IMG/VR virus record: IMGVR_UViG_3300017913_002143 | Span: 1-64,000 of that record | Origin: a virus | Taxonomy: Duplodnaviria > Caudoviricetes | Direction: 5' to 3' (one strand) | DNA length: 64,000 bases | Part shown: one piece after another, positions 16,539-62,966 of the stretch | Numbering within the stretch: the first letter of the stretch is position 1 | How the letters are laid out: each line of letters starts with the position of its first letter | The notes under the pieces: model-generated | What the model saw: the letters and a program-made list of their open reading frames with translations, nothing else | Told to the model about the DNA's origin: nothing | The model's database searches: none | Program-made: the position numbers and the translations under genes

Positions 16539-16567
16539 TTTACCTTTTCTGAAAAGTGGTGTATAAT
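16539..16567 (+). promoter_or_regulatory. Sigma70-type early promoter
   Basis: TTTACC-17 bp-TATAAT, AT-rich UP element, spacer contains palindrome TTTTCTGAAAA. Confidence 0.75.
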
Positions 16568-18113: not shown

Positions 18114-18118
18114 ACATT

Positions 18119-25779: not shown

Positions 25780-25782
25780 ATT

Positions 25783-45927: not shown

Positions 45928-47771
45928 TGGCAACAACCATAAAGTCAGCCGATCTAGATTTTGATACCATTAAGTCGAGATTGAAGGACTACTTTCAATC
46001 TCAAACAGAATTCAACTCATATGATTTTGAGGCTTCTGGTTTATCAAACGTACTTGATGTATTGGCATACAATACACACATCAATGCGTTAACAGCAAAC
46101 ATGGCATTGAATGAATCTTTCTTGCCAACATCACAGCTGCGTAGTTCCGTTCTATCACATGCTGCATTGCTTGGATATGAAACTCGTTCACGTACAGCAT
46201 CAAAGGCTCTAGTTAATCTTTCTTTGAACTTGACTGGTGTAGCTAATCGTCCAGTAACAATTAGACTTGCAAAAGGCACAACATTTTCATCTAATGTAGA
46301 TGGAACATCATTTACCTTTAGAACGAGAGAAGCATATAGTGCAACAGATAATGGTACTGGAACATATGATTTCAAGACGTCAGATGGTTCTGCTGACATT
46401 CCAATTTATGAAGGTATTGAGAAAACAAAGACATTCTTAGTTGGACCAAAAGATGAAAGACAGATCTATGTGATTCCAGATGAGACACTTGACAAGTATT
46501 CTATTGATGTGAGAGTATTCAAAGATATATCATCATCTTTATTTGAAGACTATTTGCCTTTACGTCTTGCATCATCTATTACATCTAAATCAAAACTATA
46601 TTCCGTAGCTGAAGTTCCAAATGGTTATTATGAGTTGAACTTTGGTGATGGTGCATCATTTGGTAAGTCACCAGAACCTGGAGAAAAGGTACAAGTAACT
46701 TATACCTCAACAAAAGGACCTATTGCAAATGGTGGTAGTGTGTTTCTTGCAAACAATACTGTAACTGTTGGTAGTATTGCATACGTGTTGAGTGTTACAA
46801 CAGCTGCTGAATCAAGTGGTGGTGGTGAGAAACAATCGATCGATTCGATTAAACAACTTGCTCCTATTGCTTATGCTTCACAGAATAGGCTTGTGACATC
46901 ATTAGATTATAAAGGTACAATTGAAACAAACTTCTCGACGGTAGAACAAGCTGCTGTTTGGTCTGGTGATGAGAATGTTCCAATTGATTATGGTGCTGTC
47001 TATATTTCACTTGACTTCAAAAACAATACTCCTACAGCTACACAGCAAGCTGTCAAGGACGCTATTAGTAACACATATGTAGATCAACTTGGCACAATGT
47101 CTATGACACCCAAGTTTATTGATCCAGAAAATATATATCTTGAGCTCACAACATTGTTCAGGTTTGATCCATCAAGAACTGGTACAAGTGCTACTACTAT
47201 GGAAAGTTCTGTTAAGTCATACATCTCAACATACTTTGCTGATAATCTTGATACGTTTGGAAAAGTGTTCAGACGTAGTAACCTACTTACAGAAATTGAT
47301 GCTTTTGATCAATCTATTCTATCTTCTCGTATGGATGATATTAAAGTTCAAATGAGAAGGCCTATAGATGTAACTGCTAACAATACTTTTGAAGTTCAGT
47401 TCCCATGTGAAATTGAAGAACCAGATGATGTATATTATCGTGTTACAACAAATGAATTTACATATCAAGGTACGGTATGTCGAATTAAGAATAGATTGAA
47501 GTCAAATCAATTAGCTATTGTTGATCTAAATGATAATATTCTACTTGATAATGTTGGTAACTATGATAGGCTAAAAGGTATAGTGAACATCATTGGATTT
47601 AGACCTGTTACTATGTTATACGGTACAAACGATCTGAAGATTTCAGTTGTACCAAGAAACCCAGCAACAATATATCCTCTAAGAAACTATATCCTTAATC
47701 TTGAAAAAGACAGATCAACCGTTACGGCTGTAACAGATAGACAGGCTGGCACACTTAGAGTTCAAAACTAA
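45927..47771 (+). CDS. gp6: Baseplate wedge gp6
   Basis: LDFDTIKSRLK, YDFEASGLSNVLDVLAYNTH, FGDG, QNRLVT..DY. Confidence 0.93.
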   Translation: MATTIKSADLDFDTIKSRLKDYFQSQTEFNSYDFEASGLSNVLDVLAYNTHINALTANMALNESFLPTSQLRSSVLSHAALLGYETRSRTASKALVNLSLNLTGVANRPVTIRLAKGTTFSSNVDGTSFTFRTREAYSATDNGTGTYDFKTSDGSADIPIYEGIEKTKTFLVGPKDERQIYVIPDETLDKYSIDVRVFKDISSSLFEDYLPLRLASSITSKSKLYSVAEVPNGYYELNFGDGASFGKSPEPGEKVQVTYTSTKGPIANGGSVFLANNTVTVGSIAYVLSVTTAAESSGGGEKQSIDSIKQLAPIAYASQNRLVTSLDYKGTIETNFSTVEQAAVWSGDENVPIDYGAVYISLDFKNNTPTATQQAVKDAISNTYVDQLGTMSMTPKFIDPENIYLELTTLFRFDPSRTGTSATTMESSVKSYISTYFADNLDTFGKVFRRSNLLTEIDAFDQSILSSRMDDIKVQMRRPIDVTANNTFEVQFPCEIEEPDDVYYRVTTNEFTYQGTVCRIKNRLKSNQLAIVDLNDNILLDNVGNYDRLKGIVNIIGFRPVTMLYGTNDLKISVVPRNPATIYPLRNYILNLEKDRSTVTAVTDRQAGTLRVQN

Positions 47772-48838
47772 TGGCTAATTTTGAAACACTAAAAGATTAC
47801 AATCGCGTACCAGTAAACCTACGAAAGAGTCAGGTTGAAGAAGTACTTCCAGAATACTTTGTTGAGGACTATCCAAACTTAGTTACCTTCTTGGAAGGAT
47901 ACTATGATTATCTTGATTCAGATAGACAATGGGGTGGTATAACTCAAGAACTTACTACAGTTCGTGACTATGAAGATACAACTCTCAAAAGACTTGATCT
48001 ACTTCTTGAAGAAGTTGGATTGGGTATATCTCAAGGTCAATTTTCGCAACCGCGGGAAGTTGTAAAAAACTTTGGTAACTTCTTTAGAGTAAAAGGTTCA
48101 GAGTATTCTGGATATGGCTTTTGGAGAGCATTCTTTGATATTGAAGATGTAGAGATTACATATCCAAAAGAAAGATTATTTAGACCAGGTATATCAACAA
48201 TTGGTGTTGAAGATTCCTGGATTATCCAAGATGGTGGTATATATCAAATCTTTTCATTATTGATTAGATCTCCATTACCACTTGCAGATTGGGAACAGCT
48301 ATGGCGTAAATATGTACATCCATCTGGATATCATCTAGCTGCAGAAGTAGTTCTTATTGGTATAGATGAGATGACTTATACTACAGCACAAAGTATTGCT
48401 GAAGATCCAGACATAGTCGTTGAGACATTTGCTACTCCTCTGTTCCAGAGCCTACATCAAGAAGGCGAAGTCACTGGCTTGTATCCAGACAATACAAACC
48501 TTGCAGGATACATGCAGGCTGGTGGAGTTACTCATCGCAGTGGTTACTCAGCTCCATATGTACATCCTGGTTATGCAACACCTGGTGAAGTTGATGCGGA
48601 TGCAGCAAGAGAACGTCTCAGCGTCTACAAGACACCAGAGGACTTTGGTCTTACAAAGACTATCAGATTCATTGATAGCAACTACAAGTCAATTGACAAC
48701 TTGGCTGGCTTCCATCTCAAGTTTGATGACACGTTTGTCAAGTTCTCTGACTCATCATACACAACATTTGATATGATGTATCATGTACAATATAGTGACA
48801 GTGACGGTCCAATAACGCTGTACAACTATTATAAATAG
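47771..48838 (+). CDS. gp7: Baseplate wedge gp7-like
   Basis: LPEYFVEDYP..VTFLEGYY, FRVKGS, YQIFS, YVHPSG. Confidence 0.75.
   Translation: MANFETLKDYNRVPVNLRKSQVEEVLPEYFVEDYPNLVTFLEGYYDYLDSDRQWGGITQELTTVRDYEDTTLKRLDLLLEEVGLGISQGQFSQPREVVKNFGNFFRVKGSEYSGYGFWRAFFDIEDVEITYPKERLFRPGISTIGVEDSWIIQDGGIYQIFSLLIRSPLPLADWEQLWRKYVHPSGYHLAAEVVLIGIDEMTYTTAQSIAEDPDIVVETFATPLFQSLHQEGEVTGLYPDNTNLAGYMQAGGVTHRSGYSAPYVHPGYATPGEVDADAARERLSVYKTPEDFGLTKTIRFIDSNYKSIDNLAGFHLKFDDTFVKFSDSSYTTFDMMYHVQYSDSDGPITLYNYYK
48830..48837 (+). promoter_or_regulatory. T4 late promoter
   Basis: Exact TATAAATA upstream of the gp9-like gene. Confidence 0.75.
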
Positions 48839-48863: not shown

Positions 48864-50057
48864 ATGGCAAGAGCAATAATAGCAATAGGAAGTGCGGGGA
48901 ATGATGGTACCGGTGATACCTTACGTGCCGGTGCAATTAAAATCAACGATAACTTTGCTGAACTTTACCAAGATGTTTCAAACCTAGGTCTTTTAGTTTC
49001 AGACTCTGCAGGAGGATTGAATCTTGAAGGTATTAGTTTTGATCAGCGTAGTGTAGTGTTTATTGGTGTAGATAGTCCAAACTCAACTCCTGCTGATAAC
49101 AACGAAACATATTTAAGAGCAACTGAACCAACAAAAGATAATATTATCATCTTACCAGATTCTGGTGGTAATGTTGCCTTGACTCAAGACATTCCTAGGA
49201 AGGTGAGTCAACTTATTAACGACGCTGGATACGTAACAGGTAGTGGCGTAGGCATTGACTCAGCAATTGCATTAACATTGATTGGTGATAACTCTATTGA
49301 CTCTATTGGTGTTATTCAGCTTATTGATGCAGCTTATATTCAGGCCAGAGAAAACAATCCAGCAGCTGGGTTAGACTCAGCATTAGTCAGACAAGAAATA
49401 GATCTGTACGTTGATTCTGGATTTTTGAGAACTGCTGGTGAAACCGCATTCCTAGACTCAGCTGATTACTACGATACTATTGCAGCTAGCCATAGAGATA
49501 ACTTCATACCAATTAACAACAACACTAGAAGTTTAGGTGTTAACGCAACCAGATGGTCAGAACTATTTCTTGGAACAGCATTGGAAATTGATAGCGCTCG
49601 ATTCATATATGATACAAGTGCTGATCAATTAACTATGGGTAAAGTTGCATCTTTAAAATTACAAGCAAATAATTTACAAGATAGTGCAATATTTGCATTA
49701 GGTAATATATCTGGAACAAGATACGTATCGCTGAACACAAATATTGTACCTTCAGCGGATAGTGCACTTGATCTTGGTGCAAGTACTCTGCAATGGCGAG
49801 ATCTCAAAATATCTCGTGCTATTCGTTTTGGTGATAGTGCATCGATAAGAAGACATCATCTTGGTGGTGGTATTCGTTTGAATCTTGCACGTTATGCAGA
49901 CGCTGATCTTCCATCTGATGGAATGGCTGGAGATCTAATTATTATCACTGATGGTGATTCAGCTACACTTGGTCCAACACTAGCGTTTAAAGATAGTGAC
50001 AACGGAAATTATATTAAATTTAACACCGCGCAAGGAGTTGGCGGTGGTGGATTCTAA
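48864..50057 (+). CDS. gp9/gp10-like baseplate tail-fibre connector, DS-rich
   Basis: IGSAGNDGTGDTLRAGAIKINDNFAELY N-terminal motif; 14 DS dipeptides. Confidence 0.75.
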   Translation: MARAIIAIGSAGNDGTGDTLRAGAIKINDNFAELYQDVSNLGLLVSDSAGGLNLEGISFDQRSVVFIGVDSPNSTPADNNETYLRATEPTKDNIIILPDSGGNVALTQDIPRKVSQLINDAGYVTGSGVGIDSAIALTLIGDNSIDSIGVIQLIDAAYIQARENNPAAGLDSALVRQEIDLYVDSGFLRTAGETAFLDSADYYDTIAASHRDNFIPINNNTRSLGVNATRWSELFLGTALEIDSARFIYDTSADQLTMGKVASLKLQANNLQDSAIFALGNISGTRYVSLNTNIVPSADSALDLGASTLQWRDLKISRAIRFGDSASIRRHHLGGGIRLNLARYADADLPSDGMAGDLIIITDGDSATLGPTLAFKDSDNGNYIKFNTAQGVGGGGF

Positions 50058-50076
50058 TCCATAAGGAAATAAAAAC

Positions 50077-51432
50077 ATGCCAGCAATTATTACATCATCT
50101 CTCAGAAAGCAGATTGCTCGTGACTTCTTCGATGGATTCACAGCAGGAAGCAGCCTATACTATATTAGTATAGGTCGTTCACAATTATGGGATAGTAGTG
50201 ATACAACACCCACTCCTGTTGATACTCCAGGTACTATCCAAGATGTTCGTGACAACATGCAATCTGTTAAAAAGGTTCAAGGATCTTCTTTAGTTGTTCC
50301 ACGTTACAATTGGACAAGTGGTACTGTATACAATCAGTATGATGATACCGTACAAGGTATTCCAAGTCCAACATACTACGTGAAGACAGACAACAATCAA
50401 GTTTACCTTTGTTATGAAACAGGTAGAGATTCTGATGGTGCTGTCCAGCCATCAATTGTTGAGCCAACATATTCAAACCTACATCCATTTAGATTATCTG
50501 ATGGATATGTTTGGAAGTTCTTGTATACCATCTCAGCTGAGAGATCAAACAATTTTATGGCCGCAAACTTCATGCCTGTTCAAAAGATTGGATCTGTTGA
50601 TTCTAACTCAACTGGTATTGCGGTACGTCAGAAAGAAGTACAGGATGCATCTCAAGCTGGTGAGATTGTAAACATTACTCTGACTGATGGTGGTGCTGGA
50701 TATACAACTACCGTACCAACAGTTACAATTACATCAACATCTGGTAGTGGTGCTGCTGCTACAGCTCACATTGACTCAGCTCTTGGTGTTGTAACACATA
50801 TCACAATGGATCCAGATAGCTCACGTTTGAAGTTGGGTAGCAAATACTTTGCTCATCCAACAATTACAATAACTGGTGGTAGTCCTACAGCAGCTGCTAC
50901 AGCTCGTGCAGTACTTGGACCAGATTCTGGATTTGGTAATGATGCAAGAGAAGACTTGAATGCCCAAGCATTAATGTTCAACTCTAAGATGGAAGGTGAC
51001 GATAGTGACCTGATCACTGGTCAGGACTTCAGACAAGTATCATTGGTCAAAGATCCAAGACAACGTAATGGTGTAGTGTTTACTGACTTGACTGGTAATG
51101 CTATGGATAAGATGAAACTCAGCACAATCACTACAGCATTCACACGCGATAAAGTATTACTTGGTGCAACATCTCTTGCAAAAGCAAATGTTGTACACAT
51201 TGATTCAAATGAAATCTACTACACACGAACAAATCAAACTGGGTTTGCAGATTTTACAAATGGTGAAGCATTATCAGAAACAACAGGTGCTGGCGCAGGT
51301 ATTATCGACTCCGCTCTCATACGTCCTAAATACGATAGAGAAACTGGTGAGATATTATTCATTGACAACAGAGCAGCTGTGTTAAGAGATCCAACCCAGG
51401 CAGAAGATATAAAGATTATTATTCAATTCTAA
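50077..51432 (+). CDS. gp8: Baseplate wedge gp8
   Basis: VPRYNWTSG..Y, YYV...VYLC, DGYVWKFLYTI, SGEILFIDNR-like GEILFIDNR, EDIKIIIQF. Confidence 0.88.
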   Translation: MPAIITSSLRKQIARDFFDGFTAGSSLYYISIGRSQLWDSSDTTPTPVDTPGTIQDVRDNMQSVKKVQGSSLVVPRYNWTSGTVYNQYDDTVQGIPSPTYYVKTDNNQVYLCYETGRDSDGAVQPSIVEPTYSNLHPFRLSDGYVWKFLYTISAERSNNFMAANFMPVQKIGSVDSNSTGIAVRQKEVQDASQAGEIVNITLTDGGAGYTTTVPTVTITSTSGSGAAATAHIDSALGVVTHITMDPDSSRLKLGSKYFAHPTITITGGSPTAAATARAVLGPDSGFGNDAREDLNAQALMFNSKMEGDDSDLITGQDFRQVSLVKDPRQRNGVVFTDLTGNAMDKMKLSTITTAFTRDKVLLGATSLAKANVVHIDSNEIYYTRTNQTGFADFTNGEALSETTGAGAGIIDSALIRPKYDRETGEILFIDNRAAVLRDPTQAEDIKIIIQF

Positions 51433-51443
51433 GGAACTGAAGT

Positions 51444-54400
51444 ATGGCTACTAATTTAACGACTACCGCTTTTCTCGATACATATCGTGATGACTTTAAG
51501 GATAGTAATCACTATCACCGCATTCTATTCAAAAGCGGCAAGGTCCTCCAAGCTCGTGAGCTTACCCAAATGCAGACAATTATCCAGAAGGAAATTGAAC
51601 GCATGGGTACAAACATCTTCAAAGAAGGTGCAGCTGTGCTTGGTGGTGGCATCACAGTTAACAACAGATACGAGTTTATCAAACTAGACACATCAGTAAA
51701 TGCATTACCTGGTACTCCTTCTCAAATGAATGGAGTGACAATCACTGGGGCAACATCAGGTGTGATTGCAAAGGTTAGAGAAGTAGTCACAGCAACTGGT
51801 GGTGATCCAGATACTTTGTATGTTGAGTATACATCAACTTCTTCTGGTACAGCTGGTGCAACTACTCCAGTTCGTTTTAGTCCTGGTGAGAATCTAACTA
51901 ACTCTGTTACACTACTTACAGTACAAACAACTAACACTGGTGTGAATCCAGCAGTTGGTGCAGGTACAAGAGCATCGACAAATACAGGTGTATTCTTTAC
52001 TCAAGGTCACTTTGTACAAGCTGATGCACAATCTAAAATTATTTCAAAATATACTAGTGATCCATCCTTGAATGTTGGATTTAGTGTTGAGCAAAGAATA
52101 TTCACTGTTGATGATGATGGTGCGTTATATGACAATCAAGGTGCCGTACCAAATGTAACAGCACCTGGTGCTGATCGTTATCGTATCGATATGAACCTTG
52201 CACTAGAGTCTGAAGTAGACTCAGATGAAATCTTTGTATTCTATGCAAAGATTCAAAAAGGTAAAGTTATTGAAGTTGTTTCATCAGATGACTCATACAA
52301 TAAGATTGAAGACTTCTCCGCAAAACGTATTCATGAGATTAATGGTGACTTTATTAAAAATCAGTTTAGAATTGTATATGAAGACCATCCAACAGATAAT
52401 ACAAAGATCAATCTCAAAGTGTCTCCAGGTCTTGTATACCTGAATGGATATCGTAATGAGTATACAGGTACAACTACTATTGCTGTTAACAAAGCTGATG
52501 ATACTGAACAGATTACAAATGATGTAGTATCGGTTGGTATTGGTAATTATATTTTATGTGATAGTTCTCTAGGTGTTCCAAACATTGCTGAGTTTGAACA
52601 GTATAACATTAAGGATGGATATCAGAACACAGGATCAACAATTGGTACATGTCGTGTTAAGTCGGTAGAAGAAGATGGAGCAAACATCCGTTACTACTTG
52701 ATGGACATTAGTATGAATGCTGGATCTAACTTCAAAGATGCTCGTTCAATTGCTGTCAACTCAACTAACTATGCAAACCCAATCCTTGAGAATGGTGATG
52801 CGGTACTAAAAGATAAGATTAACAACACCCTTATCTTCCCATTCCACTATCCACGCGTGCAGGGCTTGACAAACATATCTTATAATGTGTTACAAAGAAT
52901 CACTAGAACAACTGATGGTTCTGGTAATGCTTCTATGCCAACTCTGTCTGGATCAGAATTGTATGTTGATACAGGTGACTGGATCATTGCACGTACAGAT
53001 ACTGGCGCTTTGATTACGCCAACAATCACTTTATCAGGTGGTGGTACTGGTGCATCAATTAGTAGCGGTCCAACATCAACGACAATTGAGATCATTTATC
53101 TCAAGTCAGTTAATGCAAGTGCAAGAACAAAGACACTCACAAACACTACCACCACAACTACTGTAACAACACCTGCAACTGGTGCACCATACATTAGTTT
53201 GGGTAAAGCTGATATTATTGATATAGAAAGAGTTCGCATCACAGACTCGGCTGGTCAAGACATTAAAGGTCGTTGGATCCTTGACAATGGCCAAAGAGAT
53301 AACTTCTATGATGTTGGTAGATTGGTTCTCAAAGGTAATCAAACTGCACCACAAGGTAATGTGTTTGTGAGGTTCAACTATTATGCACATGGTGCATCTG
53401 GTGACTTCTTTGGACCTACTTCATATCCTTCTCCATATGGTGATATTCCAACATACACAAATAAGAGTGGGACGACGTTTGATCTAAAGAGCCACATTGA
53501 TTTCCGCTCACGTAAGGATGATACGGGAGCTAACTTTACTGCAGGTACAGCAAGATATAATGCTCTGCCACAGAACACATCTCTTGTAACCGCAGATGTA
53601 ACATACTACTTGCCACGCTATGACAAGTTAATTGCAACAAATCCTCTAAAGTATGTTGAAGGTACATCAGCATTTGATCCACAGTTCCCACAAACACCTG
53701 CAGGTGCAATTGAGCTGTATCAGGTTAAAATGAATGCTGGTACTGTTAATGACAGTGATATGCAAATGAAACGTATTGAAGCAAAAGGCTTCACTATGAA
53801 GGATATTGCTCGACTTGAAGATCGCTTAGACAATCTTGAAGAAGTTACAGCACTGAGCTTACTGGAAGTTGATCTGAAAAACTTCTCTGTACTTGATTCA
53901 GCTGGATTAGATCGTACAAAGTCTGGCTTCTTGGTTGATAACTTTATTGACCATCAATCATCTGCTGTTGATAATATTGAATATAGAGCATCTGTTGATC
54001 CTCAGAATAAGATTCTAAGACCTTCATTCTCAGAGAATGAAATTAAGATGATGTATGATTCATCTCTGTCAACCAATACTATTCAGAAGGGTGATAATGT
54101 ATACATTAAGTATACACATGAGTCATTCATCAATCAAGATATTGCATCTGGTACAGAAAACATTAACCCATTTGCTGTTATCACAAATGATGGCTATATG
54201 AATCTATCTCCAAGCTCAGACACTTGGAAAGAAACAAAGGTTCGTCACACTAAAGTTATCTCAGGTGGTACTAGACTTGACAATCAGTCAAAGAGACTGT
54301 TTGGTAACTGGAACTGGAACTGGGGTGGGGTTGCAGTAGGTACAAATGTAACTGGTGCAAGAACTCAAGTTGAAGGTCAGTTTAACGTAACTCGAGTTAA

Positions 54401-56516
54401 TCGTGTTGTATCAGAACAAACAATTCGTGAAGTTGTTGACGAGCGTATTGTTGATGTAGCAATGATCCCATTCATGCGTTCATTAAGAGTATACTTCAAA
54501 GTTGATGGACTGAGACCAAACACTCGTCACTATCCATTCTTTGATGGTGTATCGGTTGCTGATTGGGTAGATGGTACAGCATCATTTACAAGATCTGGTT
54601 CAGATGGAAACATTGTTGGTAATAGATTTAATCGTGCAACAACACATCCAGATACTTCATCAGCATCTGATAGAGTTCTGACTACAAACTCAGCTGGTTC
54701 AGTAAGTGGATCATTCTTTATTCCAAACACATCTGCAATCAGATTCAGAACAGGTACATTACCATTTGAGTTGATGGATGTTACTGGTGGTGATAAGAAC
54801 TTTGCTACTTCATCAGCAACAGGATACTTCAGTTCAACTGGTGTACTGAATACAGTTGATCGTACAGTAAAGGCAACTCGTCAGATTGCAATCAGATCTG
54901 TTGTAACTGGACGTTCACGTATCACACCTCCACAGGATGATGGTGATCCAAATCCAAATGATCCGTTGGCACAATCATTCTTTGTGAATAAGCCAAATGG
55001 TGTATTCATTACTAAGGTGAAGGTGTTCTTCAAGACTAAGGATGCTGCAATTCCTGTACAGCTTCAGATTCGTCCAATGGTTAATGGATATCCTGATAAC
55101 ATTCCAGTACCAGGAGCAGTTAAGTTCTTGAATCCTGTTGATGTAAATACATCAGCTGATTCTAATACAGCTACAGAATTTGAGTTTGATGAGCCAGTAT
55201 TCTTGAGTGGCTTGACAGAGTATGCTATTGTATTGCTAGCGCAGTCAGTAGACTATCTTGTGTATGTAGCTGAAACAGAAAAGTTTGAGATTGGATCTAC
55301 AGCACGTAAGGTTGCAAAACAGCCTACACTTGGATCACTATTCTTATCACAGAATGGTTCCACATGGAATGCAGCTCAGAATAAGGATATGAAGTTTGAG
55401 TTGATGCAAGCTAAGTTCCCTCATACTTCAGCTAATGTTGTTCTTGAAAACGCAAACCTACCAAAGCAGCTGCTGCCAATTGATCCTCTAACAATGGATT
55501 CACAGTCATCAACATTGACTGTACTTGCACCAAACCATGGGTTGGTTGTAGGTGACTTGGTTAACTTGACTGGTCTTGATAGTACAACAAACTATGGTGG
55601 TACTAACATTACAGGTGCTGTAGTAAATGGTAACCATACAATTACAGCAATTGATGAAAACACATATCAAGTTACTTTGAGTCAATCGTCAGATTCTGGA
55701 TTAACATTTGGTGGCGATGCTGTTCTAACATCTCAGAACTATCAATATGAGATTATGGTACCAAGATTCCAAACGCTTGTACCACAGAATACAGATGTTA
55801 CAATTGATGTTAAATTAACTCAAGGTAAGTCACTTGCTGGTACAGAGACACAATACAATAAAGATAATTCTTATACACGTATTGTATTGAATGAAGATAA
55901 CTACTTTGATACACCAAAAGTTGTTGCAAACGAGAATCGTGAAGGAGTATCAATGTCTGGTGATAAGTCAGCAACAATCAAGCTGAACTTGACTACATCA
56001 GATAGTGATCTAGCTCCTGTGATTGACTTGCAGAGAGCTGGATTATGGTTATTCCACAATGAGATTGACTTCCAAGACTCTGCTGGTTCACCTGGTGTAC
56101 TAACAAATAACAACAGAAACAATCCAGTTGACTTTGCTGATGAGACTGATCCAACAGGTGGTTCACATCTTGCAAAGCATATTGTAAAACCTGTTGTACT
56201 TGAGTCTCCATCAGTTGGTATCAAAGTACTGCTTTCTGCTAATAAGCCTTCGACAGCAAACTTTGATGTATACTACAAGGCAATCCAAGAAGATGAGAAC
56301 TTTGAGGACTTCAACTGGGTTGAGATATCTGCAGAAGAAAATGTGCAGTCTGATGAAGATCCATCAGTGTACAGAGATTATACATATTTGATTGGTGGCC
56401 AGCAAGGTTTCTCAACACCGTTTGATAAGTTTATCATTAAGATTGTTATGAAAACTACAAATGCTGCTCTTGTACCATCATTCAAAGACTTGAGGGTGAT
56501 AGCACTGGCAGTATAA
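51444..56516 (+). CDS. Large virion structural protein (DUF4815/VrlC-like)
   Basis: DDF..SNHYHRILFK, QARELTQMQ, APGADRY, SGFLVDNF, DPLAQSFFV, FKDLRVIAL. Confidence 0.8.
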   Translation: MATNLTTTAFLDTYRDDFKDSNHYHRILFKSGKVLQARELTQMQTIIQKEIERMGTNIFKEGAAVLGGGITVNNRYEFIKLDTSVNALPGTPSQMNGVTITGATSGVIAKVREVVTATGGDPDTLYVEYTSTSSGTAGATTPVRFSPGENLTNSVTLLTVQTTNTGVNPAVGAGTRASTNTGVFFTQGHFVQADAQSKIISKYTSDPSLNVGFSVEQRIFTVDDDGALYDNQGAVPNVTAPGADRYRIDMNLALESEVDSDEIFVFYAKIQKGKVIEVVSSDDSYNKIEDFSAKRIHEINGDFIKNQFRIVYEDHPTDNTKINLKVSPGLVYLNGYRNEYTGTTTIAVNKADDTEQITNDVVSVGIGNYILCDSSLGVPNIAEFEQYNIKDGYQNTGSTIGTCRVKSVEEDGANIRYYLMDISMNAGSNFKDARSIAVNSTNYANPILENGDAVLKDKINNTLIFPFHYPRVQGLTNISYNVLQRITRTTDGSGNASMPTLSGSELYVDTGDWIIARTDTGALITPTITLSGGGTGASISSGPTSTTIEIIYLKSVNASARTKTLTNTTTTTTVTTPATGAPYISLGKADIIDIERVRITDSAGQDIKGRWILDNGQRDNFYDVGRLVLKGNQTAPQGNVFVRFNYYAHGASGDFFGPTSYPSPYGDIPTYTNKSGTTFDLKSHIDFRSRKDDTGANFTAGTARYNALPQNTSLVTADVTYYLPRYDKLIATNPLKYVEGTSAFDPQFPQTPAGAIELYQVKMNAGTVNDSDMQMKRIEAKGFTMKDIARLEDRLDNLEEVTALSLLEVDLKNFSVLDSAGLDRTKSGFLVDNFIDHQSSAVDNIEYRASVDPQNKILRPSFSENEIKMMYDSSLSTNTIQKGDNVYIKYTHESFINQDIASGTENINPFAVITNDGYMNLSPSSDTWKETKVRHTKVISGGTRLDNQSKRLFGNWNWNWGGVAVGTNVTGARTQVEGQFNVTRVNRVVSEQTIREVVDERIVDVAMIPFMRSLRVYFKVDGLRPNTRHYPFFDGVSVADWVDGTASFTRSGSDGNIVGNRFNRATTHPDTSSASDRVLTTNSAGSVSGSFFIPNTSAIRFRTGTLPFELMDVTGGDKNFATSSATGYFSSTGVLNTVDRTVKATRQIAIRSVVTGRSRITPPQDDGDPNPNDPLAQSFFVNKPNGVFITKVKVFFKTKDAAIPVQLQIRPMVNGYPDNIPVPGAVKFLNPVDVNTSADSNTATEFEFDEPVFLSGLTEYAIVLLAQSVDYLVYVAETEKFEIGSTARKVAKQPTLGSLFLSQNGSTWNAAQNKDMKFELMQAKFPHTSANVVLENANLPKQLLPIDPLTMDSQSSTLTVLAPNHGLVVGDLVNLTGLDSTTNYGGTNITGAVVNGNHTITAIDENTYQVTLSQSSDSGLTFGGDAVLTSQNYQYEIMVPRFQTLVPQNTDVTIDVKLTQGKSLAGTETQYNKDNSYTRIVLNEDNYFDTPKVVANENREGVSMSGDKSATIKLNLTTSDSDLAPVIDLQRAGLWLFHNEIDFQDSAGSPGVLTNNNRNNPVDFADETDPTGGSHLAKHIVKPVVLESPSVGIKVLLSANKPSTANFDVYYKAIQEDENFEDFNWVEISAEENVQSDEDPSVYRDYTYLIGGQQGFSTPFDKFIIKIVMKTTNAALVPSFKDLRVIALAV

Positions 56517-56716
56517 TGAAAGCAAGAGTTGAAGGTCATAATACTCTTATTCGTGACTTGAATAATAATGCTATTTTGAATGTTGATGCAGTATCTGTTC
56601 AACGAGCTCGAGAAGCGAAGAGGGTTAGGAAGAATAACAAACAGGAACTTGAAGAATTAAAGCATGAGGTTGGTGAACTCAAGTTAATGATGAGAGAGAT
56701 ACTGGATAGACTATAA
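56516..56716 (+). CDS. Small coiled-coil protein following the DUF4815 gene
   Basis: LIRDLNNNAILN..., C-terminal coiled coil. Confidence 0.6.
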   Translation: MKARVEGHNTLIRDLNNNAILNVDAVSVQRAREAKRVRKNNKQELEELKHEVGELKLMMREILDRL

Positions 56717-57666
56717 TGGCAAGAAAAATACATATTGACAGCGATTATACTATCCAGCAATGGATTGATAGTCAGAATGGTATGTCTGACTTCATGGGTG
56801 ATCTTAGTAATTTTGAAGCTCGATTCAAGAATACTAAACTAGATGACTATCCTGGATATAATGATTCGTCATTTGTGACTGCACTAAACTTTATCAATGA
56901 TCCTTGGGTCGAATATCTGCGAGGTTTGTTTGGTGGTGGGAAGGTAAAGATTAGTGCTGAACTATTAGTTGACTCTGCAGCATTCCAAACATTAAGACTT
57001 GCTGATAGTACCGATAGTAGTGCTAATCCAATGCTACATGGTCCAACAACCAGACCAAGGTTTAGCAAATTCTATACACATATGTTTGCTGACACTACTG
57101 GTGTAAATGCTAGACATACTGGTTATGATAATGGAGATGATCCAACAGCAACCAGTATATACATTGGTGCAAATAATCGTTGGCCTAATCCAGATGCTCC
57201 AGGTATTATGTCGTTTGATTATGACTTGACTGTACAAGACTCAGCATTCTTCAACAACATAAGAGTTGGTGCATCCAAAGGCTTCCTATTTCAGGGTGCA
57301 GACAGTTGTCATTTTGATTACATTAATATTAAAGATAGTGGCTTCATTCGTGGTATTGGTCCAAACGATTCAAATGACTTTATCAAGATAGTATTTGCGG
57401 ATATTGATTCAAGTTCAACGATTGACTCTGCTTACATAGGGACATTACGTTCTAATAATATTATCAACGATAGCTCAACGTTTGGTATATTGAGAATAAA
57501 TAATATATTAGTACTAGATAGTAATAATGCAACTTTAAAGTTAGAACAAGATAGTCCAACGTTTGATGGAGTAAGTAAGTTTTTGATCACTGATTCACTT
57601 GGGCCTGATTCACCAAACGATGCTGGTGTTATACGTTTTGGCTCATACAAGTTAGATTCGATTTAA
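56716..57666 (+). CDS. DS-rich virion fibre-like protein
   Basis: N-terminal T/IxxQW...MSDFMGDL and DSSFVTALNF; 18 DS in 316 aa. Confidence 0.6.
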   Translation: MARKIHIDSDYTIQQWIDSQNGMSDFMGDLSNFEARFKNTKLDDYPGYNDSSFVTALNFINDPWVEYLRGLFGGGKVKISAELLVDSAAFQTLRLADSTDSSANPMLHGPTTRPRFSKFYTHMFADTTGVNARHTGYDNGDDPTATSIYIGANNRWPNPDAPGIMSFDYDLTVQDSAFFNNIRVGASKGFLFQGADSCHFDYINIKDSGFIRGIGPNDSNDFIKIVFADIDSSSTIDSAYIGTLRSNNIINDSSTFGILRINNILVLDSNNATLKLEQDSPTFDGVSKFLITDSLGPDSPNDAGVIRFGSYKLDSI

Positions 57667-57676
57667 GGAACACGTT

Positions 57677-58372
57677 ATGACACGTAAAGAGAATATTCAA
57701 ACTTTTGCTCCTATTGGCCAGTGGGTAGCCAAAACAAATCTGATGTCCGATTACATTGGAGATCTTGATCTTCTTGACTCAGCGTTCTTACGGTTTGATT
57801 CTACTAATGGTAAAACAAATGATTCAAATGTTGTTGCAGCAATTAACTTTTTGTGGACAGCAGTTGATAGTGTATACAACCAGCTTACACAAGGTGTGCT
57901 ACGTCTTGGTAACTTAACAGCAGACTCTGGTACGTTTAGAATTATTCGTGTTGGCATGATGCAAGCTGACAGTGCTACTATTGATAGTGCTTATATTCAA
58001 AACCTCACAGTTGCTGGTCGACTGGATGTTGAGTCTGCAGACTTTGATAAGATTACTGTAGAATATATCAACGTTGCACAAAATGGTACTCTGACTATTG
58101 ACTCAGCTACCGTCCATACTTTGAATGCTCAACATCTGTTAGCAGATAGTGCACGTATCAATACTGCTACAATTAACAATATCATGGCTGATAGTGCAAC
58201 AATAGATAGTGCATATATTAATGACACTTTGGTAATTGGTACTGGAGGGATTATTCAAATAGATGGTGTAGACTTAACAGATGCAAAGAAACTTGAGATT
58301 AAGAATGAAGCTGGAACAGTAGTCTTAGGTGGCTATTTGTTATCAACTTCTAATACAATTGGAACTCCATAA
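57677..58372 (+). CDS. DS-rich virion fibre-like protein, paralog of upstream gene
   Basis: IGQWVAKTNLMSDYIGDL, DSNVVAAINF; repeats ADSATIDSAYI; 11 DS in 231 aa. Confidence 0.6.
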   Translation: MTRKENIQTFAPIGQWVAKTNLMSDYIGDLDLLDSAFLRFDSTNGKTNDSNVVAAINFLWTAVDSVYNQLTQGVLRLGNLTADSGTFRIIRVGMMQADSATIDSAYIQNLTVAGRLDVESADFDKITVEYINVAQNGTLTIDSATVHTLNAQHLLADSARINTATINNIMADSATIDSAYINDTLVIGTGGIIQIDGVDLTDAKKLEIKNEAGTVVLGGYLLSTSNTIGTP

Positions 58373-59385
58373 TGGCTTTGAGAGCACTTATTGAAGATGG
58401 GTCTACTCGAATAAGAGAGACCACGGTTGCTGAGCATAATGCAATGCTTGGAAGAATAGCATATTTGTATCAGACAGGAACGGTTCCTGTTACACTAAGT
58501 GTCGTATCTAGTGGTGGTAACATTTCTCCAAATATGACCGATACCAGATATAAATCTGGTACAGCGGCTCGAAACACATCAGGTCCTTGGCCAGCAGTAA
58601 CCTCATTTCCCTCAGAATCACAAACTGGTGAACCGCAACTTGTTACGGGTGTTACTTACGATAAAATCAACCAAACTACAACTTCTGTTACAGCTTTTGC
58701 CAATAGTGATTACCAGAGTCTAGCTGTAAAACCGGTTCTTTTTGATGGTAGTAATACTATTCAAGAAATGACTTATGCACAGGTGTTACAGTATTTTATA
58801 AATCCCGTAGTACTTGCTATGCAACAATCTACCAATACTGAAGCTGCAGCTGGTGGATCATATTACATATCAACCGCAGGATCTGTATCTGGGTCAACTA
58901 ACTTAGGTACAGTATTTGTCGACACGTCTGCAAATGCTTCTGGATACTTGGCAACTAATATTGGTACTGCTGGAACAACGCAAGATGTTTTCAATAGTAC
59001 TACCTATTATCTGTATAGAGTAGATTCTAGTTTTTCATCACAAGGTAGTGGTTATAGAACTCCATTGATGATTGATTATGGCCAAAGTAGCAGATCGTCT
59101 CAAACTCCAGCTGGTCTAAGACATATGACATATACTGAGTTTGATAATTTGTTTAGTCCGTTGGTCAAACATGCAATCAGTACTGAAGCTGGATATCGTG
59201 TGTCATACAACATTAATGGCTCGGGTACAAGGCAGGGTACATTAATTGCAAATAGACAAATGGTTGGTGTCAGTGGGGCGTATACAACATATAAAGCTAC
59301 TGGTGATGATTATCGTGCTCAAGAATTTCCAAACGGCACAATAGTAAATGTCAATGAATATGAATTAAAGTTAGAGAGAACTTAA
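58372..59385 (+). CDS. Putative virion structural protein
   Basis: Thr/Ser-rich 337 aa ORF in the tail operon; AQEFPNGT C-terminal motif. Confidence 0.5.
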   Translation: MALRALIEDGSTRIRETTVAEHNAMLGRIAYLYQTGTVPVTLSVVSSGGNISPNMTDTRYKSGTAARNTSGPWPAVTSFPSESQTGEPQLVTGVTYDKINQTTTSVTAFANSDYQSLAVKPVLFDGSNTIQEMTYAQVLQYFINPVVLAMQQSTNTEAAAGGSYYISTAGSVSGSTNLGTVFVDTSANASGYLATNIGTAGTTQDVFNSTTYYLYRVDSSFSSQGSGYRTPLMIDYGQSSRSSQTPAGLRHMTYTEFDNLFSPLVKHAISTEAGYRVSYNINGSGTRQGTLIANRQMVGVSGAYTTYKATGDDYRAQEFPNGTIVNVNEYELKLERT

Positions 59386-59386
59386 A

Positions 59387-59878
59387 ATGATAGAAGGTCA
59401 CAAATTAATTGAAGCACATTTCTGCAACAACGAACGCACTAGTATAGAAATATTCTGGCGGCACGATGATATTGAGAACCAAGAGTCGACTGTAAGAGTT
59501 GAATATTGTAAAGCTGATGAATCGGATGAAATGTATAACTGGCTATTGACTCAGATGTCAGTAGATGATCTACATGAGGCTACTTTTAAAAATATTAAAA
59601 TTCAGGATGAAATCTATAGAGAACAGGTTGTTGCTATAGCAAAAGAAGATGGTTTGATATTTGATGAAAAATCAGATGCTACAAGTACAGCTGCTCTATT
59701 AGCTAATGTGTTATTTAATTATGATCAACTCCATCAAAAAGAACTTTTGTTCCAGTTTAAGTTACAAGTGTTTGAGATGGATGAAGTTAGGAATGCAAGC
59801 TCAGCTGTAAAGTCTAAGATTCGAAAATCAGAAACTATAGTTGATGTTGTTAAGCACGTCATCAAACTCCTTGTTTGA
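59387..59878 (+). CDS. Hypothetical protein (possible fibre assembly factor)
   Basis: End of the tail operon; converges on the minus-strand cluster. Confidence 0.45.
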   Translation: MIEGHKLIEAHFCNNERTSIEIFWRHDDIENQESTVRVEYCKADESDEMYNWLLTQMSVDDLHEATFKNIKIQDEIYREQVVAIAKEDGLIFDEKSDATSTAALLANVLFNYDQLHQKELLFQFKLQVFEMDEVRNASSAVKSKIRKSETIVDVVKHVIKLLV

Positions 59879-60487
59879 TTGGTGTAAGAAGTAACACGCT
59901 GGAGTGTATTGAGTTACAATTTGATCTAAGATATAATTCCACTGTATTCCAATATCAGTAAAAGGTACGTTATACTTTTCAATAATGTATGATAAGAACA
60001 CCTCATTGTTTGGTTTATATAACCTATCTACATCACATTCATAGTACACTTTTTCAGCCTCACCATACCGTTCAGAAAACATAAGTTGATCAGCAGCTTG
60101 CTTATTCATACCAAACACACCTGTGTTTATTATATTATGTTCACCTGCCCCATCTAACATGTACCGTTTGAGATTAATCTTCCAATCTGGCTTGTTTGTT
60201 CTGTGGCAACAAATGTTGTTCAGATCATGTACATCAAAGAATGATTTAAGTCTTTTGGGTATAACATCTAGATCAAGATATAGAACTTCATCATAATCGT
60301 TGACTAATTGTTCAGCAAGATGTATCTTGTAGAATTGTAGATCAACAAAGTTTAATTTTGTATCATACAGTCCATAGTCAGCGTTACAGAAGTAAGCATA
60401 GTCTTCGTGCTTTTCTGTAAGTATTTGTTTATAGTCTTCCCAATCTGGTCCTAGATCAGACCAGACACTAAATATTATTCTTTTCAC
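59828..60487 (-). CDS. Putative glycosyltransferase, GT-A-like
   Basis: VLYLDLDVIP, INTGVFG, NNEVFLSY, QWNY, LH. Confidence 0.65.
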   Translation of the reverse strand: MKRIIFSVWSDLGPDWEDYKQILTEKHEDYAYFCNADYGLYDTKLNFVDLQFYKIHLAEQLVNDYDEVLYLDLDVIPKRLKSFFDVHDLNNICCHRTNKPDWKINLKRYMLDGAGEHNIINTGVFGMNKQAADQLMFSERYGEAEKVYYECDVDRLYKPNNEVFLSYIIEKYNVPFTDIGIQWNYILDQIVTQYTPACYFLHQSNKEFDDVLNNINYSF

Positions 60488-61277
60488 AATAATCTCTTAC
60501 ATAATCAAAATCTTTATTGATTGCATGTACCATCTTTGTTTTTGATGGTATGTATGATATGTCTCCTCTCATAGCATGGTGCCAATATTCATCAAGTGGT
60601 GTTAGCTTAACATTATTCTGTAACATCTTATAACTGAAAAGAGTTTCATTATCATATCCAAAATGATCAAAGCCACTCTCCTCCTTTACCTGATGCATGA
60701 ACTCCAATGTCTCAGAGAAGTTTTCAAAGTAGTTTAATTTTCGTAATCCCTGTTGACTTGCTAGAGTTATTCCAGTATTGTATACATCATTGCTTCCATC
60801 CTCTCCACTGAATATTCTCATCACTCTACAGTTATGCCACTTTGCATATGGCGATCGATCACTCTGACCTTCTCGTCTGGTTAAGTAATGTTTTGGATCT
60901 TCTTCATGATTGATCCTTACTGCTATGTCTGCATTCAGATCAAATATGTTTTCATCTGTGATTGGAATAACATCTAAGTCTAAGTAAAGTACATTATCAT
61001 ACTTTTTAGATAATTTATACATTAAATGTATTTTATAGAAGTTAACTATACAATACTCATTTACATAAGGATGATTGTTTAGGAACCAGTCTCTGTAGTT
61101 GTAATAATTATCCTCTTGGATACAATAATAATCACAACCTATCTTATCTGCATACTCACGCTGCTTTGATACTAACCATTTGAAGTTATCAGCAAACTTA
61201 TCAGCAATGTATGTATTGTCACTTGCCTCTAGATATTTCTTTGGTACTTTAATGTATAGAGTGAATATAGTATTCAT
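60468..61277 (-). CDS. Putative glycosyltransferase, GT-A-like (paralog of downstream gene)
   Basis: VLYLDLDVIP, YNTGI, DNETLFSY, YWH, VHAINK. Confidence 0.65.
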   Translation of the reverse strand: MNTIFTLYIKVPKKYLEASDNTYIADKFADNFKWLVSKQREYADKIGCDYYCIQEDNYYNYRDWFLNNHPYVNEYCIVNFYKIHLMYKLSKKYDNVLYLDLDVIPITDENIFDLNADIAVRINHEEDPKHYLTRREGQSDRSPYAKWHNCRVMRIFSGEDGSNDVYNTGITLASQQGLRKLNYFENFSETLEFMHQVKEESGFDHFGYDNETLFSYKMLQNNVKLTPLDEYWHHAMRGDISYIPSKTKMVHAINKDFDYVRDYCEKNNI

Positions 61278-61963
61278 GAGCCAATTACCAAGAACCTATC
61301 ATACTCATTCCTCCACGATCTGGTGCCACTATACAATATTTCCTTGAGTGGTAGTGTACTAATAAAACGCTCGACAGAGTCATGACAGTTGATGTGGCTA
61401 TCTATTTCATAATAATTATTTGATTGTAATGCAACTATCTGGTTGGGATGTTTCTTTTTCAGAGCGTTATATAATTCATCTTCGTGAATGTGTTCACAGG
61501 CTGTACATATAGTAATCTTGCTGCTAGTATTTGTATTAGTACCACCCATTGGTTCACGATTCACATCCAACCCTCTATCATCTTTGTTGTAGATGTCAAG
61601 TCCATTTCCTGTAACAAAATGTATGTTATTATATTGAGCTAATCTATATCCATATTCCTCACATATTGGATCTAGATCATAATTTTTTATCTCGTTTGTA
61701 AATCCATTGTCAGCTAGTATGTGAGCCATCAAACCGTACCAGCCACCAATGATTTGAATACTACCATGTTCTTTTGTAATATATGGACGTAGCTCATTAG
61801 CTAACCACAACTTGGATGAGAACTGGCCAGCGCTAACTGAATCCATAACATCTTTCATACGAAATAGATCACAGTCTGGATTGTATTGTGAGTCGGTGTA
61901 TATGTGACTGAGTAGATCTATAACAGAATCAAAAAACGATCGTGGAACGTATTGCATTATCAA
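61274..61963 (-). CDS. SAM-dependent methyltransferase-like protein
   Basis: IQIIGGWYG, YDLDP, CTACEH, LQSNN, YDRFLVIG. Confidence 0.55.
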   Translation of the reverse strand: MIMQYVPRSFFDSVIDLLSHIYTDSQYNPDCDLFRMKDVMDSVSAGQFSSKLWLANELRPYITKEHGSIQIIGGWYGLMAHILADNGFTNEIKNYDLDPICEEYGYRLAQYNNIHFVTGNGLDIYNKDDRGLDVNREPMGGTNTNTSSKITICTACEHIHEDELYNALKKKHPNQIVALQSNNYYEIDSHINCHDSVERFISTLPLKEILYSGTRSWRNEYDRFLVIGS

Positions 61964-62468
61964 ATGTCCTATAGAGTAGCTTCTGATCCCATACGTACCT
62001 GTCTACTCCTTTATACTTTCTTGTATAGTAGTCAATGTTTCTACTGAAGATATCCCAATACTCTGTGTTGCGATGAGATGTCCATGCCATGACTGAACTA
62101 TTCAACATTGTTTCGTATGCATGCTTTTCGTAATATAATTCACTCTTATGATCATCTGCAATAAAAGTTGGATATCTCCAATCTATGGATTCAATATATT
62201 GGAAAGGATTAGCAGCGATGTCAATATCAAGATCAAACATGACGCAACGATCATTCAATACAAAGTCGTGTCTAAATACATGAAGTTTGTTCCACCATCT
62301 TATAAGTTTGGGTGAGTCAGGAATAGGTAAACATTCTATTATAACATTTTTTGGATCTTCTGTCAAGCAAAAAATTGGGTAATCAGCAAAATTTAATAAT
62401 ACTTCTGCTTGTCTATTTACATCTTCAGCTGTATACTTAGTGCCATGTTTTAATAATATAATATTCAT
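61929..62468 (-). CDS. Putative glycosyltransferase
   Basis: Likely start MNIILLKHGTKY at 62468; WWNKL, FDLDIDI, LNSSVMAW, GVDRY. Confidence 0.6.
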   Translation of the reverse strand: MNIILLKHGTKYTAEDVNRQAEVLLNFADYPIFCLTEDPKNVIIECLPIPDSPKLIRWWNKLHVFRHDFVLNDRCVMFDLDIDIAANPFQYIESIDWRYPTFIADDHKSELYYEKHAYETMLNSSVMAWTSHRNTEYWDIFSRNIDYYTRKYKGVDRYVWDQKLLYRTFDNAIRSTIVF

Positions 62469-62483
62469 ACAATATATAGTAGC

Positions 62484-62966
62484 ATGTTTAAAAGATACAA
62501 TACAGATAATGGTTATCACGATTTTTCTCTTACAAAGGTAGTGACCTTTCATAATCCAGATAGCTTAGCATATTATGAAGATCTTTATACAAAATTACAG
62601 CAGGATGACTTTGGTGATATAAAAGTCCCCAGATTCACATTTAATGTAACAGATACGCAACTGATAATCAATTCAGAGTATATCAAAGGTCGACAATGGC
62701 AAAGTGACGATTTGTGGCATAACTTTGACTTTGTTGCAAACAATATAGTATTCAAAGAGGGAAACTATTCGTTTACAGATTTTGCACCACATAATTTTAT
62801 CATAGAGTTTAACACTAATGACATATACTATGTTGACTTTGAAGCATATGATGTTTGTACAATTGATGATCGGAGTAATTTATTACAACGCCAACGAAAA
62901 AATATTGAGGATCGTGATCCAGAATTGAAATCTTTTAGGAGACAGTCTAGGTTCAAAATGTTATAA
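62484..62966 (+). CDS. Small protein-kinase-like (APH/Kdo/choline kinase-like) protein
   Basis: KVPRF, EYIKG hinge, DFAPHNF catalytic loop, YVDFE Mg-binding motif. Confidence 0.55.
   Translation: MFKRYNTDNGYHDFSLTKVVTFHNPDSLAYYEDLYTKLQQDDFGDIKVPRFTFNVTDTQLIINSEYIKGRQWQSDDLWHNFDFVANNIVFKEGNYSFTDFAPHNFIIEFNTNDIYYVDFEAYDVCTIDDRSNLLQRQRKNIEDRDPELKSFRRQSRFKML

Follow-up and report, generated by a model that had tools for sequence, protein, structure and literature searches.

Introduction

The locus described here raises the question of why an uncultured marine T4-like phage should place the dipeptide Asp-Ser (DS) time and again in the outer proteins of its baseplate and fibres. It lies in a window of 64,000 nucleotides (nt), the whole stretch of DNA that was analysed (positions 1 to 64,000 of IMG/VR record IMGVR_UViG_3300017913_002143; Duplodnaviria, Caudoviricetes), which belongs to a virus contig of 74.9 kb whose closest cultured phages are Kyanoviridae (gp8 identity 35% with C48C1 and 28% with Mosig). 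A preliminary description had pointed to DS-rich genes between positions 48864 and 58372 and proposed that glycosyltransferase (GT)-like genes of the same window glycosylate DS on surface-exposed parts of the virion. Our findings confirm the excess, show that it acts at the level of the protein and trace it to the proximal parts of appendage proteins from one clade of phages. As for its meaning, we give roughly even chances to the view that hDS(A)xh (with h for a hydrophobic residue) is a lineage-specific structural signature of proximal, shaft-like attachment modules of the appendages. This estimate takes in a possible cation-binding or inter-chain role, while a function of DS as a glycosylation sequon seems to us possible but rather unlikely, and what is left over beyond these two readings stays unexplained.

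Results

Asp-Ser is enriched at the protein level

DS was counted in the translated open reading frames (ORFs) of the whole window and each protein was compared with 2000 composition-preserving shuffles of itself (given as z), which amounts to the per-protein comparison of observed and expected DS that had been proposed earlier. Upon translation, the four hand counts of the preliminary description proved exact, with 14 DS in the 397 residues of a gp9-like short fibre (z 6.2), 9 in the 451 of gp8 (z 3.4), 18 in the 316 of a protein we call A (z 8.2) and 11 in the 231 of its neighbour B (z 8.9), where 11 of the 15 Ser are preceded by Asp. Not one of the 2000 shuffles reached the observed number for the gp9-like protein, A or B and only seven did so for gp8. 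Its control counts hold too (RNase H, none; NrdJ, 3 in 741 residues; gp6, 1 in 614). In the enriched set DS is the top over-represented dipeptide (99 observed vs 22.6 expected; observed/expected ratio, O/E, 4.4), and none of the dipeptides DT (O/E 0.51), ES (0.17), NS (0.44) and SD (0.88) is enriched. Since DT lacks enrichment, the excess is Ser-specific, and because the ratio of TCN to AGY codons for Ser after Asp (66:33) equals that for other Ser of the same proteins (98:49), it acts on the protein, just as had been argued from the use of both codon types. The residue next to DS is Ala in 48 of 98 sites (49%); Gly, Ser, Asp and Asn account for 8-9% each (Gly, Asp and Asn together for about 25%) and Leu, Ile or Val are rare.

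The excess is confined to peripheral parts and proximal fibre halves

The range singled out in the preliminary description is indeed DS-rich but too narrow, as further appendage proteins carry the excess. Just downstream of the window, a fibre of 1437 residues (contig 65182-69495; L001:2182-6495) has as many as 47 DS (z 11.9), none of them in its cupredoxin-like domain. Near the other end of the window, all 9 DS of a 690-residue fibre fall within residues 1-285 (z 3.4), the distal 405 being free of them, and all 10 of a 519-residue fibre fall within residues 1-175 (z 5.6), with the distal 344 again empty. Altogether, DS is limited to the proximal parts of at least seven fibre-like proteins whose distal domains are without it, and there is no enrichment in gp6, the VrlC protein, a protein C downstream of B, the tail-fibre chaperone-like protein or any enzyme of the window. 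Hence, the excess is confined to peripheral virion parts and to proximal halves of fibres.

Two side observations concern the fibre region downstream of the window. Residues ~716-942 of the 1437-residue fibre form a globular domain free of DS, which is 42-52% identical to tail fibres of Methylophilales phage Melnitz, Synechococcus phage Bellamy, Prochlorococcus phages P-SSM2 and P-TIM68 and Pelagibacter phage Mosig. Behind this fibre follow four tandem paralogues of 392-424 residues (contig 69505-74388; L001:6505-11388), which have their DS at matching positions, almost all within the first 100 residues, and look like alternative distal fibre tips on a shared adaptor.

Asp-Ser sites are phased in protein B and near-invariant in its family

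Pooled over all sites, the context of DS reads hydrophobic, D, S, A, x, V/I/F, and its flanks are conserved as hydrophobic or small (I/A/V/L at -1, Ala at +2, I/V/F at +4). Protein B can be read as a series of DSAxI pentads in which residues 3 and 5 are small or hydrophobic throughout, and its full DSA units recur with a period of 15 residues. Across the B family 38% of DS-to-DS spacings are 15 residues, 16% are 5 and 6% are 10; multiples of five make up 65%, where chance would give 20%, and alignment shows that homologues differ by gain or loss of whole repeat units. Hydrophobicity spectra are uninformative except for that of B, which shows weak maxima at 2.5, 5 and 7.5 residues.

An AlphaFold2 (AF2) model of B, of low confidence (predicted local distance difference test score, pLDDT, 65) and used, like the other AF2 model, for secondary structure only, has continuous beta structure over residues 77-186, and a model from the ESM Atlas has a TM of ~0.5 to pentapeptide-repeat and bactofilin solenoids. 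Weak profile matches below threshold include the SU10 tail tip fibre with its xAxIx repeats and a designed pentapeptide protein (PDB, expect value E 0.06-0.09), and the sub-threshold Pfam matches are all beta-helical (Phage_Tail_Tip, G8 and the p2 receptor-binding-protein neck). A Foldseek search of the model of B against PDB gave nothing significant, its weak rows being beta-solenoids, profile searches of the B and gp9-like alignments against PDB found no structure that covers the DS regions, and B matches none of the Pfam Pentapeptide families. The gp9-like protein and the 1437-residue fibre have segments that resemble hDSAxVxxhhDSAYVQxRQ and no five-residue phasing. In a poor AF2 model of the former (pLDDT 56), S133 and S147 are each the very first residue of a helix, and other helices begin three residues past D171 and D198.

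For protein B we found 134 metagenomic homologues (cluster representatives). At the DS columns of the family (107 homologues, down to 33% identity) Asp is kept in 96% and Ser in 95% of cells, with Ser to Thr (0.8%) and Asp to Glu (0.5%) changes being rare, and these columns are the most conserved of the B proteins. Similarly, 10 of the 14 DS columns of the gp9-like family are ~100% conserved (54 homologues). In gp8, eight DS positions are common to the members of the clade and absent from L010, C48C1 and Mosig; these mostly adjoin indels, which suggests that they lie in loops, and the outgroups have other residues there.

The excess is specific to one clade

We examined 34 loci from IMG/VR and 5 from ENA, and in every one that holds them, the gp9-like protein, gp8, A and B are DS-rich. 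Two longer related contigs (G001, G003) show the excess also in long fibres, in a C-terminal extension of gp14 and in a 329-residue protein beside gp15, with none in their sheath, portal, terminase and gp6. The neck protein gp14 (PHROG 460) is a single gene of 403 codons in G003 (L055:13009-14220), and in G001 (L060:6422-8241) it is split into a core of 198 residues without DS and an outer part of 407 residues with 14 DS (z 5.4). Among cultured relatives, Mosig, HTVC008M, Melnitz, Bellamy, S-CAM9 and Ochrobactrum phage OC show no excess, and C48C1 shows none apart from one fibre (z 3.5). Sister lineages (gp8 39-45% identical, see below for their GT42-like enzyme at 57-58%) have a graded excess, with z 6-9.4 in long fibres and 1.1-2.9 in gp8, and have neither A nor B. 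The DS excess is thus clade-specific.

Glycan genes of the window

A cluster of glycan genes (Table 1) is headed at 17635 by the late-promoter motif TATAAATA, the same octamer that stands 6-45 nt upstream of at least five structural genes; weaker sigma-70-like sites are found at 16539 and 19288. To judge from these sites, late expression of the cluster is plausible. Besides the genes named in the table it includes several further ORFs. It opens with a protein of 123 residues (17742-18113), which probably contains a membrane segment and weakly matches an EF-hand loop (E 6e-4). At 19328-20671, a beta-phosphoglucomutase-like HAD domain is fused to an RmlA-like sugar-1-phosphate nucleotidyltransferase, and a 4,6-dehydratase-like gene follows; together these suggest a self-contained route to a nucleoside-diphosphate-linked 6-deoxyhexose. 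The 4,6-dehydratase-like enzyme has a LegB-like match below threshold, and neither a nonulosonate synthase nor a CMP-synthetase was found on the contig of 75 kb.

The cluster closes with the gene for a 206-residue enzyme, whose viral family is highly conserved and numbers more than 1000 homologues. When 52 of its members were combined into a profile, this matched seven CstII sequences of the PDB over query residues 4-132 (E 6.6e-5 to 2.8e-4), and four N-terminal motifs (GNGPS, CN, (T/N)SG and G-x-D) align with Campylobacter CstII of family GT42; in the protein from the window they read GNGDA, CN, NCGH and WGFDS. The alignment ends at CstII residue 161, short of the catalytic His. The GT42/CstII fold is shared with Maf. 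We considered the Maf/MptE-like family (PF01973) for this enzyme and rejected it: the protein of this contig has no match, that of G003 scores 12.4 bits, the best single members reach E 0.006 and 9.8e-5, and all stay below the cut-off of 34.6 bits.

Some remote members of the family deserve mention. On a 5-kb metagenomic contig (L072:4473-5015) one of them adjoins a Glyco_transf_29 (sialyltransferase) gene, and on three other viral contigs the reading frame of a distant homologue (G011:32191-32733, G013:70985-71482 and G015:51271-51768) runs on past one or two TAA codons. Only 66% of G011 is covered by ORFs of at least 150 codons, and the in-frame TAA may reflect broken genes or an altered genetic code.

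A second, antisense cassette with two GT8-like genes has orthologues in L004, L006 and L008, and in Mosig at 37% identity. A perfect sigma-70-type promoter (TTGACA-17-TATAAT with TG before the -10 element; 62366..62338, minus strand) lies inside the first ORF of the cassette and points at its methyltransferase-like and GT8-like genes, which suggests that the cassette is transcribed early although it sits within the late structural region. The roughly 11 GT-like genes counted earlier are more than could be verified here: two GT25 genes exceed the threshold and one GT42-like gene is backed by its profile, but the three or four GT8-like genes are sub-threshold or rest on BLAST. A flippase or oligosaccharyltransferase family was not recognised among the window ORFs scanned, the contig being 36% of a genome.

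Only the close GT42-like subfamily follows the excess

The preliminary description had asked for co-occurrence of the excess with GT genes. In part this was borne out, as the GT25 pair and close GT42-like orthologues (60-77% identical) are present in four of five clade contigs, the fifth probably not covering the region, and in every clade member that covers it the glycan-enzyme cluster is headed by the late-promoter motif; but some phages that lack the excess likewise have GT25 or GT8-like genes. GT25 had to be rejected as the tracking enzyme owing to its presence in S-CAM9 and Bellamy, and the adjacent GT8-like cassette owing to its orthologue in Mosig. The GT42-like gene is found in just two of 50,697 cultured phage records, C48C1 (39% identity), with its one enriched fibre, and siphovirus DSL-LC06 (25%), whose one enriched distal tail protein (z 3.4) is unconvincing. 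In four other lineages with distant GT42-like homologues, enriched ORFs number 0 of 64, 3 of 58 (z 3-4.6), 1 of 48 and 0 of 35. The 10-kb flanks of ~100 GT42-like loci, few of which contain fibre genes, hold no DS-rich ORFs, and contigs carrying single remote homologues are too short to judge. Hence, the excess tracks the close GT42-like subfamily, a correlation that is nested in one phylogenetic group and for which one origin suffices; no independent replicate of the co-occurrence was found among the lineages examined.

Structural genes around the DS-rich proteins

The genes run in the order gp6, wedge, gp9-like, gp8, VrlC, a small ORF, A, B, C, chaperone, antisense enzyme cassette and more fibres (Table 1). 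Only over its N-terminal 35-40 residues does the gp9-like fibre match T4 gp9/gp10 (PDB 5hx2, gp10, E 7e-9), its profile aligning in PDB with just the first 37 residues of gp10/gp9, and the remainder is neither gp9 nor gp10 by sequence. Some of its homologues terminate in an endosialidase-chaperone domain, and we therefore take it for a short trimeric fibre. Neither A nor B matches a Pfam or PHROG family, and tblastn detected no homologue of either among the 50,697 cultured phage records (a megablast with the region was empty as well). The mild excess of the wedge subunit has a counterpart in the sister lineages (z 2-4). A C48C1 gene that is syntenic to the one for the chaperone-like protein is annotated as tail assembly chaperone.

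Table 1. Positions in the window of the appendage genes and glycan genes discussed in the text.
Feature	Length (aa)	Position	Strand	Remarks
Two fibres	690; 519	3685-5757; 5767-7326	+	DS in proximal part only
Glycan cluster		17635..27725 (17.7-27.7 kb)	+	TATAAATA motif, EF-hand-like, HAD + nucleotidyltransferase, methyltransferase, 4,6-dehydratase-like, sulfotransferase, two GT25, GT8-like, GT42-like
CstII/GT42-like enzyme, last cluster gene	206	27105..27725	+	Profile support
Baseplate wedge subunit	355	47771..48838	+	Pfam PF23786; 5 DS, z 2.6, mild excess
Short fibre with gp9/gp10 N-terminal domain (gp9-like)	397	48864..50057	+	Pfam PF07880, PHROG 677
gp8 baseplate wedge protein	451	50077..51432	+	PHROG 438 over full length (E 1.6e-75), Pfam PF09215
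VrlC/DUF4815 baseplate protein	1690	51444..56516	+	Pfam PF16075; z 1.5, not enriched; marker of the host recognition cluster
Protein A, fibre-like	316	56716..57666	+	18 DS
Protein B	231	57677..58372	+	DSAxI pentads in 15-residue units
Protein C and tail-fibre chaperone-like protein	337; 163	58372..59878	+	No excess (1 DS, C having 37 Ser; 0 DS)
Antisense cassette: two GT8-like genes, methyltransferase-like gene, one further gene		59828..62552	-	GT8 matches sub-threshold

Discussion

Our findings that DS is phased, near-invariant and set between conserved hydrophobic flanks are what we would expect of a building block, and to our minds a structural signature of the proximal, shaft-like attachment modules has about as much in its favour as all other views taken together. 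In A and B, DS would form the corner of a DSAxI pentad, with Ala and Ile pointing inward and Asp-Ser making a tight turn, and its recurrence every 15 residues would stack the pairs into a ladder on a beta-solenoid or a triple beta-helix. For the gp9-like protein and the 1437-residue fibre, where the assignment follows the rules of helix capping, DS may start short helices with Asp as the N-cap and a hydrophobic staple between the flanks, and in gp8 and the neck extension it would be placed in loops. A small Ser might be sterically required while Asp gives a capping or inter-chain hydrogen bond (and perhaps binds a divalent cation in addition), which could be why both residues are near-invariant and why Thr, where a small residue is needed at the turn, is not accepted. 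The glycan genes would then serve another acceptor, most likely host lipooligosaccharide (LOS). Consistent with this, GT genes do not track the excess specifically.

Several observations weigh against it. The excess occurs in unrelated contexts (solenoid repeats, helices, Ig-like N-termini, gp8 loops, the neck extension) and in one clade only, which a single fold-specific motif explains poorly. Pentapeptide proteins and the solved SU10 fibre have comparable pentads whose corner positions vary, so the fold itself does not demand Asp-Ser. Whatever the context, a structural role is evident for only one member of the pair although neither of them varies, and the same dipeptide fixed across contexts would look like a linear motif read by a factor acting in trans. 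Finally, all structure models are of low confidence.

Such a factor is at the heart of the sequon view. It holds that in the cytoplasm a late phage enzyme attaches an O-glycan, or some other modification, to Ser in those hDS turns that are accessible, that the glycan is then lengthened and capped by the remaining transferases together with the methyltransferase and the sulfotransferase, and that the resulting coat stabilises or shields the fibres or tunes their adhesion. In its full form, with the late cluster that ends in the GT42-like enzyme putting a methylated or sulfated oligosaccharide on shafts, outer baseplate and collar, we regard it as a tentative proposal that is probably wrong, though by no means negligible. 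It is favoured by an enrichment that does not depend on fold, keeps to peripheral proteins and spares distal tips, cores and enzymes, by the restriction of this enrichment to the clade, in which gp8 gained ~6-7 DS at indel-prone loops relative to outgroups, and by the invariance of both Asp and Ser. The distribution of the genes can be read in the same way, since no clade contig that spans the region lacks the GT25 pair or the GT42-like gene, the graded excess is seen in sister lineages that possess these genes, C48C1 with its GT42-like homologue has one enriched fibre and the six cultured relatives without the enzyme have none. The TATAAATA motif shared by the cluster and structural genes and the lack of a recognised flippase or oligosaccharyltransferase in the ORFs scanned also count in its favour. 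Nor is the mechanism implausible given its precedents, since SdgA/SdgB sequentially O-glycosylate Ser of staphylococcal Ser-Asp repeat adhesins in the cytoplasm (PMC3794999, PMC8561734), Maf glycosylates flagellin (PMC4065374) and glycosylation of mycobacteriophage virions is known (Freeman 2023, as cited in PMC12582341).

Against this, the co-occurrence is fully confounded with phylogeny and a single origin is enough to account for it; the distant GT42-like lineages show no or only a weak excess, and GT25 and GT8-like genes reside in phages that have none. GT25, GT8 and GT42 enzymes normally extend LOS sugars, and an initiating protein O-transferase has not been identified. The perfect promoter of the antisense cassette suggests early, not late expression. 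Moreover, known glycosylation sites are usually poorly conserved and tolerant of exchange between Ser and Thr, while the DS sites here are invariant, have core-like flanks and are phased with the repeats, and the number of sites would be 47-66 per chain at most. So of the earlier idea that GT-like genes glycosylate DS on surface-exposed virion parts, the restriction to outward appendage proteins, the clade specificity and the co-occurrence with the cluster stand in its favour, whereas the sugar-acceptor nature of the transferase families and the conserved, repeat-phased DS do not.

Comparison with known systems is instructive here. The earlier analogy with the Bacteroidota, whose general O-glycosylation recognises D-(S/T)-(L/I/V/T/A/S/M) in non-cytoplasmic targets and proceeds by en-bloc transfer in the periplasm, with a preference of L>I>V>T>A>S at the third residue, Gly being rejected there and Glu not accepted for Asp (PMC12871550), breaks down on compartment, use of Thr and third residue. 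Alike are the essential Asp before a hydroxyl residue and the tolerance of Ala next to it, but our proteins belong to a virion assembled in the cytoplasm, they show no enrichment of DT (O/E 0.51; Ser to Thr 0.8%) and prefer Ala (49%), with Gly, Asp or Asn in about a quarter of sites, so this is resemblance rather than membership. In the Bacteroidota, moreover, undecaprenyl phosphate carries the growing glycan, which is flipped before its transfer. With SdgA/SdgB targets our proteins share an Asp that flanks the Ser in a repeat protein, Ser being the modified residue there. Sdg enzymes, however, are of the GT-B type and act on long SDSD runs, while SD is not enriched here (O/E 0.88) and no Sdg-like gene was seen. 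The small phage enzyme matches CstII (GT42; E ~1e-4), and the Maf family only below threshold.

A closer parallel for the enzymes comes from LOS synthesis. GT25 (Lic2/LgtB), GT8 (LgtC) and GT42 (CstII/Lic3) are the classical set for LOS extension in Haemophilus, Neisseria and Campylobacter; they act in the cytoplasm on sugar acceptors of the lipid A-core, not on Ser, and do so without a dedicated flippase or polymerase. Those transferases of the window that can be assigned to a family belong to just these three, which fits the published view of host-surface remodelling (PMC7029224).

As a special case of the structural signature, the DS ladders may be sites for divalent cations (Ca2+ or Mg2+) or an inter-subunit zipper that would lend slender fibres stability in seawater, which we consider improbable, though worth keeping in mind. 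Asp is invariant and not swapped for Asn or Glu, a spacing of 15 residues would stack the pairs along one edge, and other pentad folds tolerate variation at their corners; RTX repeats, calcium-stabilised beta-rolls with invariant Asp at their turns, offer a model. There is, however, no match to a known metal-binding repeat, and the isolated DS of gp8 loops and helix starts form no ladders. As for a by-product of composition, of a DNA motif or of chance, GANTC is contained in GAY-TCN pairs and is slightly more frequent than base composition predicts (333 vs 259), but the shuffle and codon tests rule such a cause out for practical purposes, as shuffled proteins virtually never reach the observed counts, a third of DS sites use AGY and form no GANTC, and the excess is limited to certain proteins and parts of proteins and conserved over ~40 diverged loci.

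Turning to the locus as a whole, a host recognition cluster has been described in pelagimyophages and cyanomyophages that runs from gp6, wedge, gp8 and VrlC through fibres interspersed with genes for glycosyltransferases (mainly GT8), methyltransferases and radical-SAM proteins to the neck genes (Zaragoza-Solas et al. 2020, PMC7029224); its transferases were interpreted as modifiers of the host O-chain and no dipeptide bias was reported. The order is the same here, with VrlC/DUF4815 at 51444 followed by fibres and the GT8-like cassette, and in the related contigs G001 and G003 the block ends at gp13/gp14/gp15. Unlike our clade, Mosig, HTVC008M, Melnitz, Bellamy and S-CAM9 are without DS excess, and A and B are absent from cultured records. 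With pentapeptide and short-coil beta-solenoids and with triple beta-helical shafts such as the SU10 fibre (PDB 7z4b), protein B shares a five-residue periodicity and inward small and large hydrophobic residues; it differs in its 15-residue unit with an invariant Asp-Ser corner, which is variable there, and has no significant match among them.

The clade is abundant in ocean metagenomes. We conclude that its DS pairs most likely indicate where turns are made and helices begin in the building blocks of its fibres, and that a role in sugar attachment is possible. If the sequon view were true, it would be the first sequon-directed glycosylation of virions in a phage of Gram-negative hosts: marine T4-like phages would sugar-coat their appendages, which would change models of adsorption, decay, grazing and immune-like recognition, and many genes of pelagimyophages and cyanomyophages now assigned to host lipopolysaccharide (LPS) would have to be reassigned. 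If the motif is structural, it would define a new set of modules for building fibres, in which the Asp-Ser corner does not vary, and DS would provide a simple sequence marker that tells shafts from receptor-binding parts in the fibres of uncultured phages.

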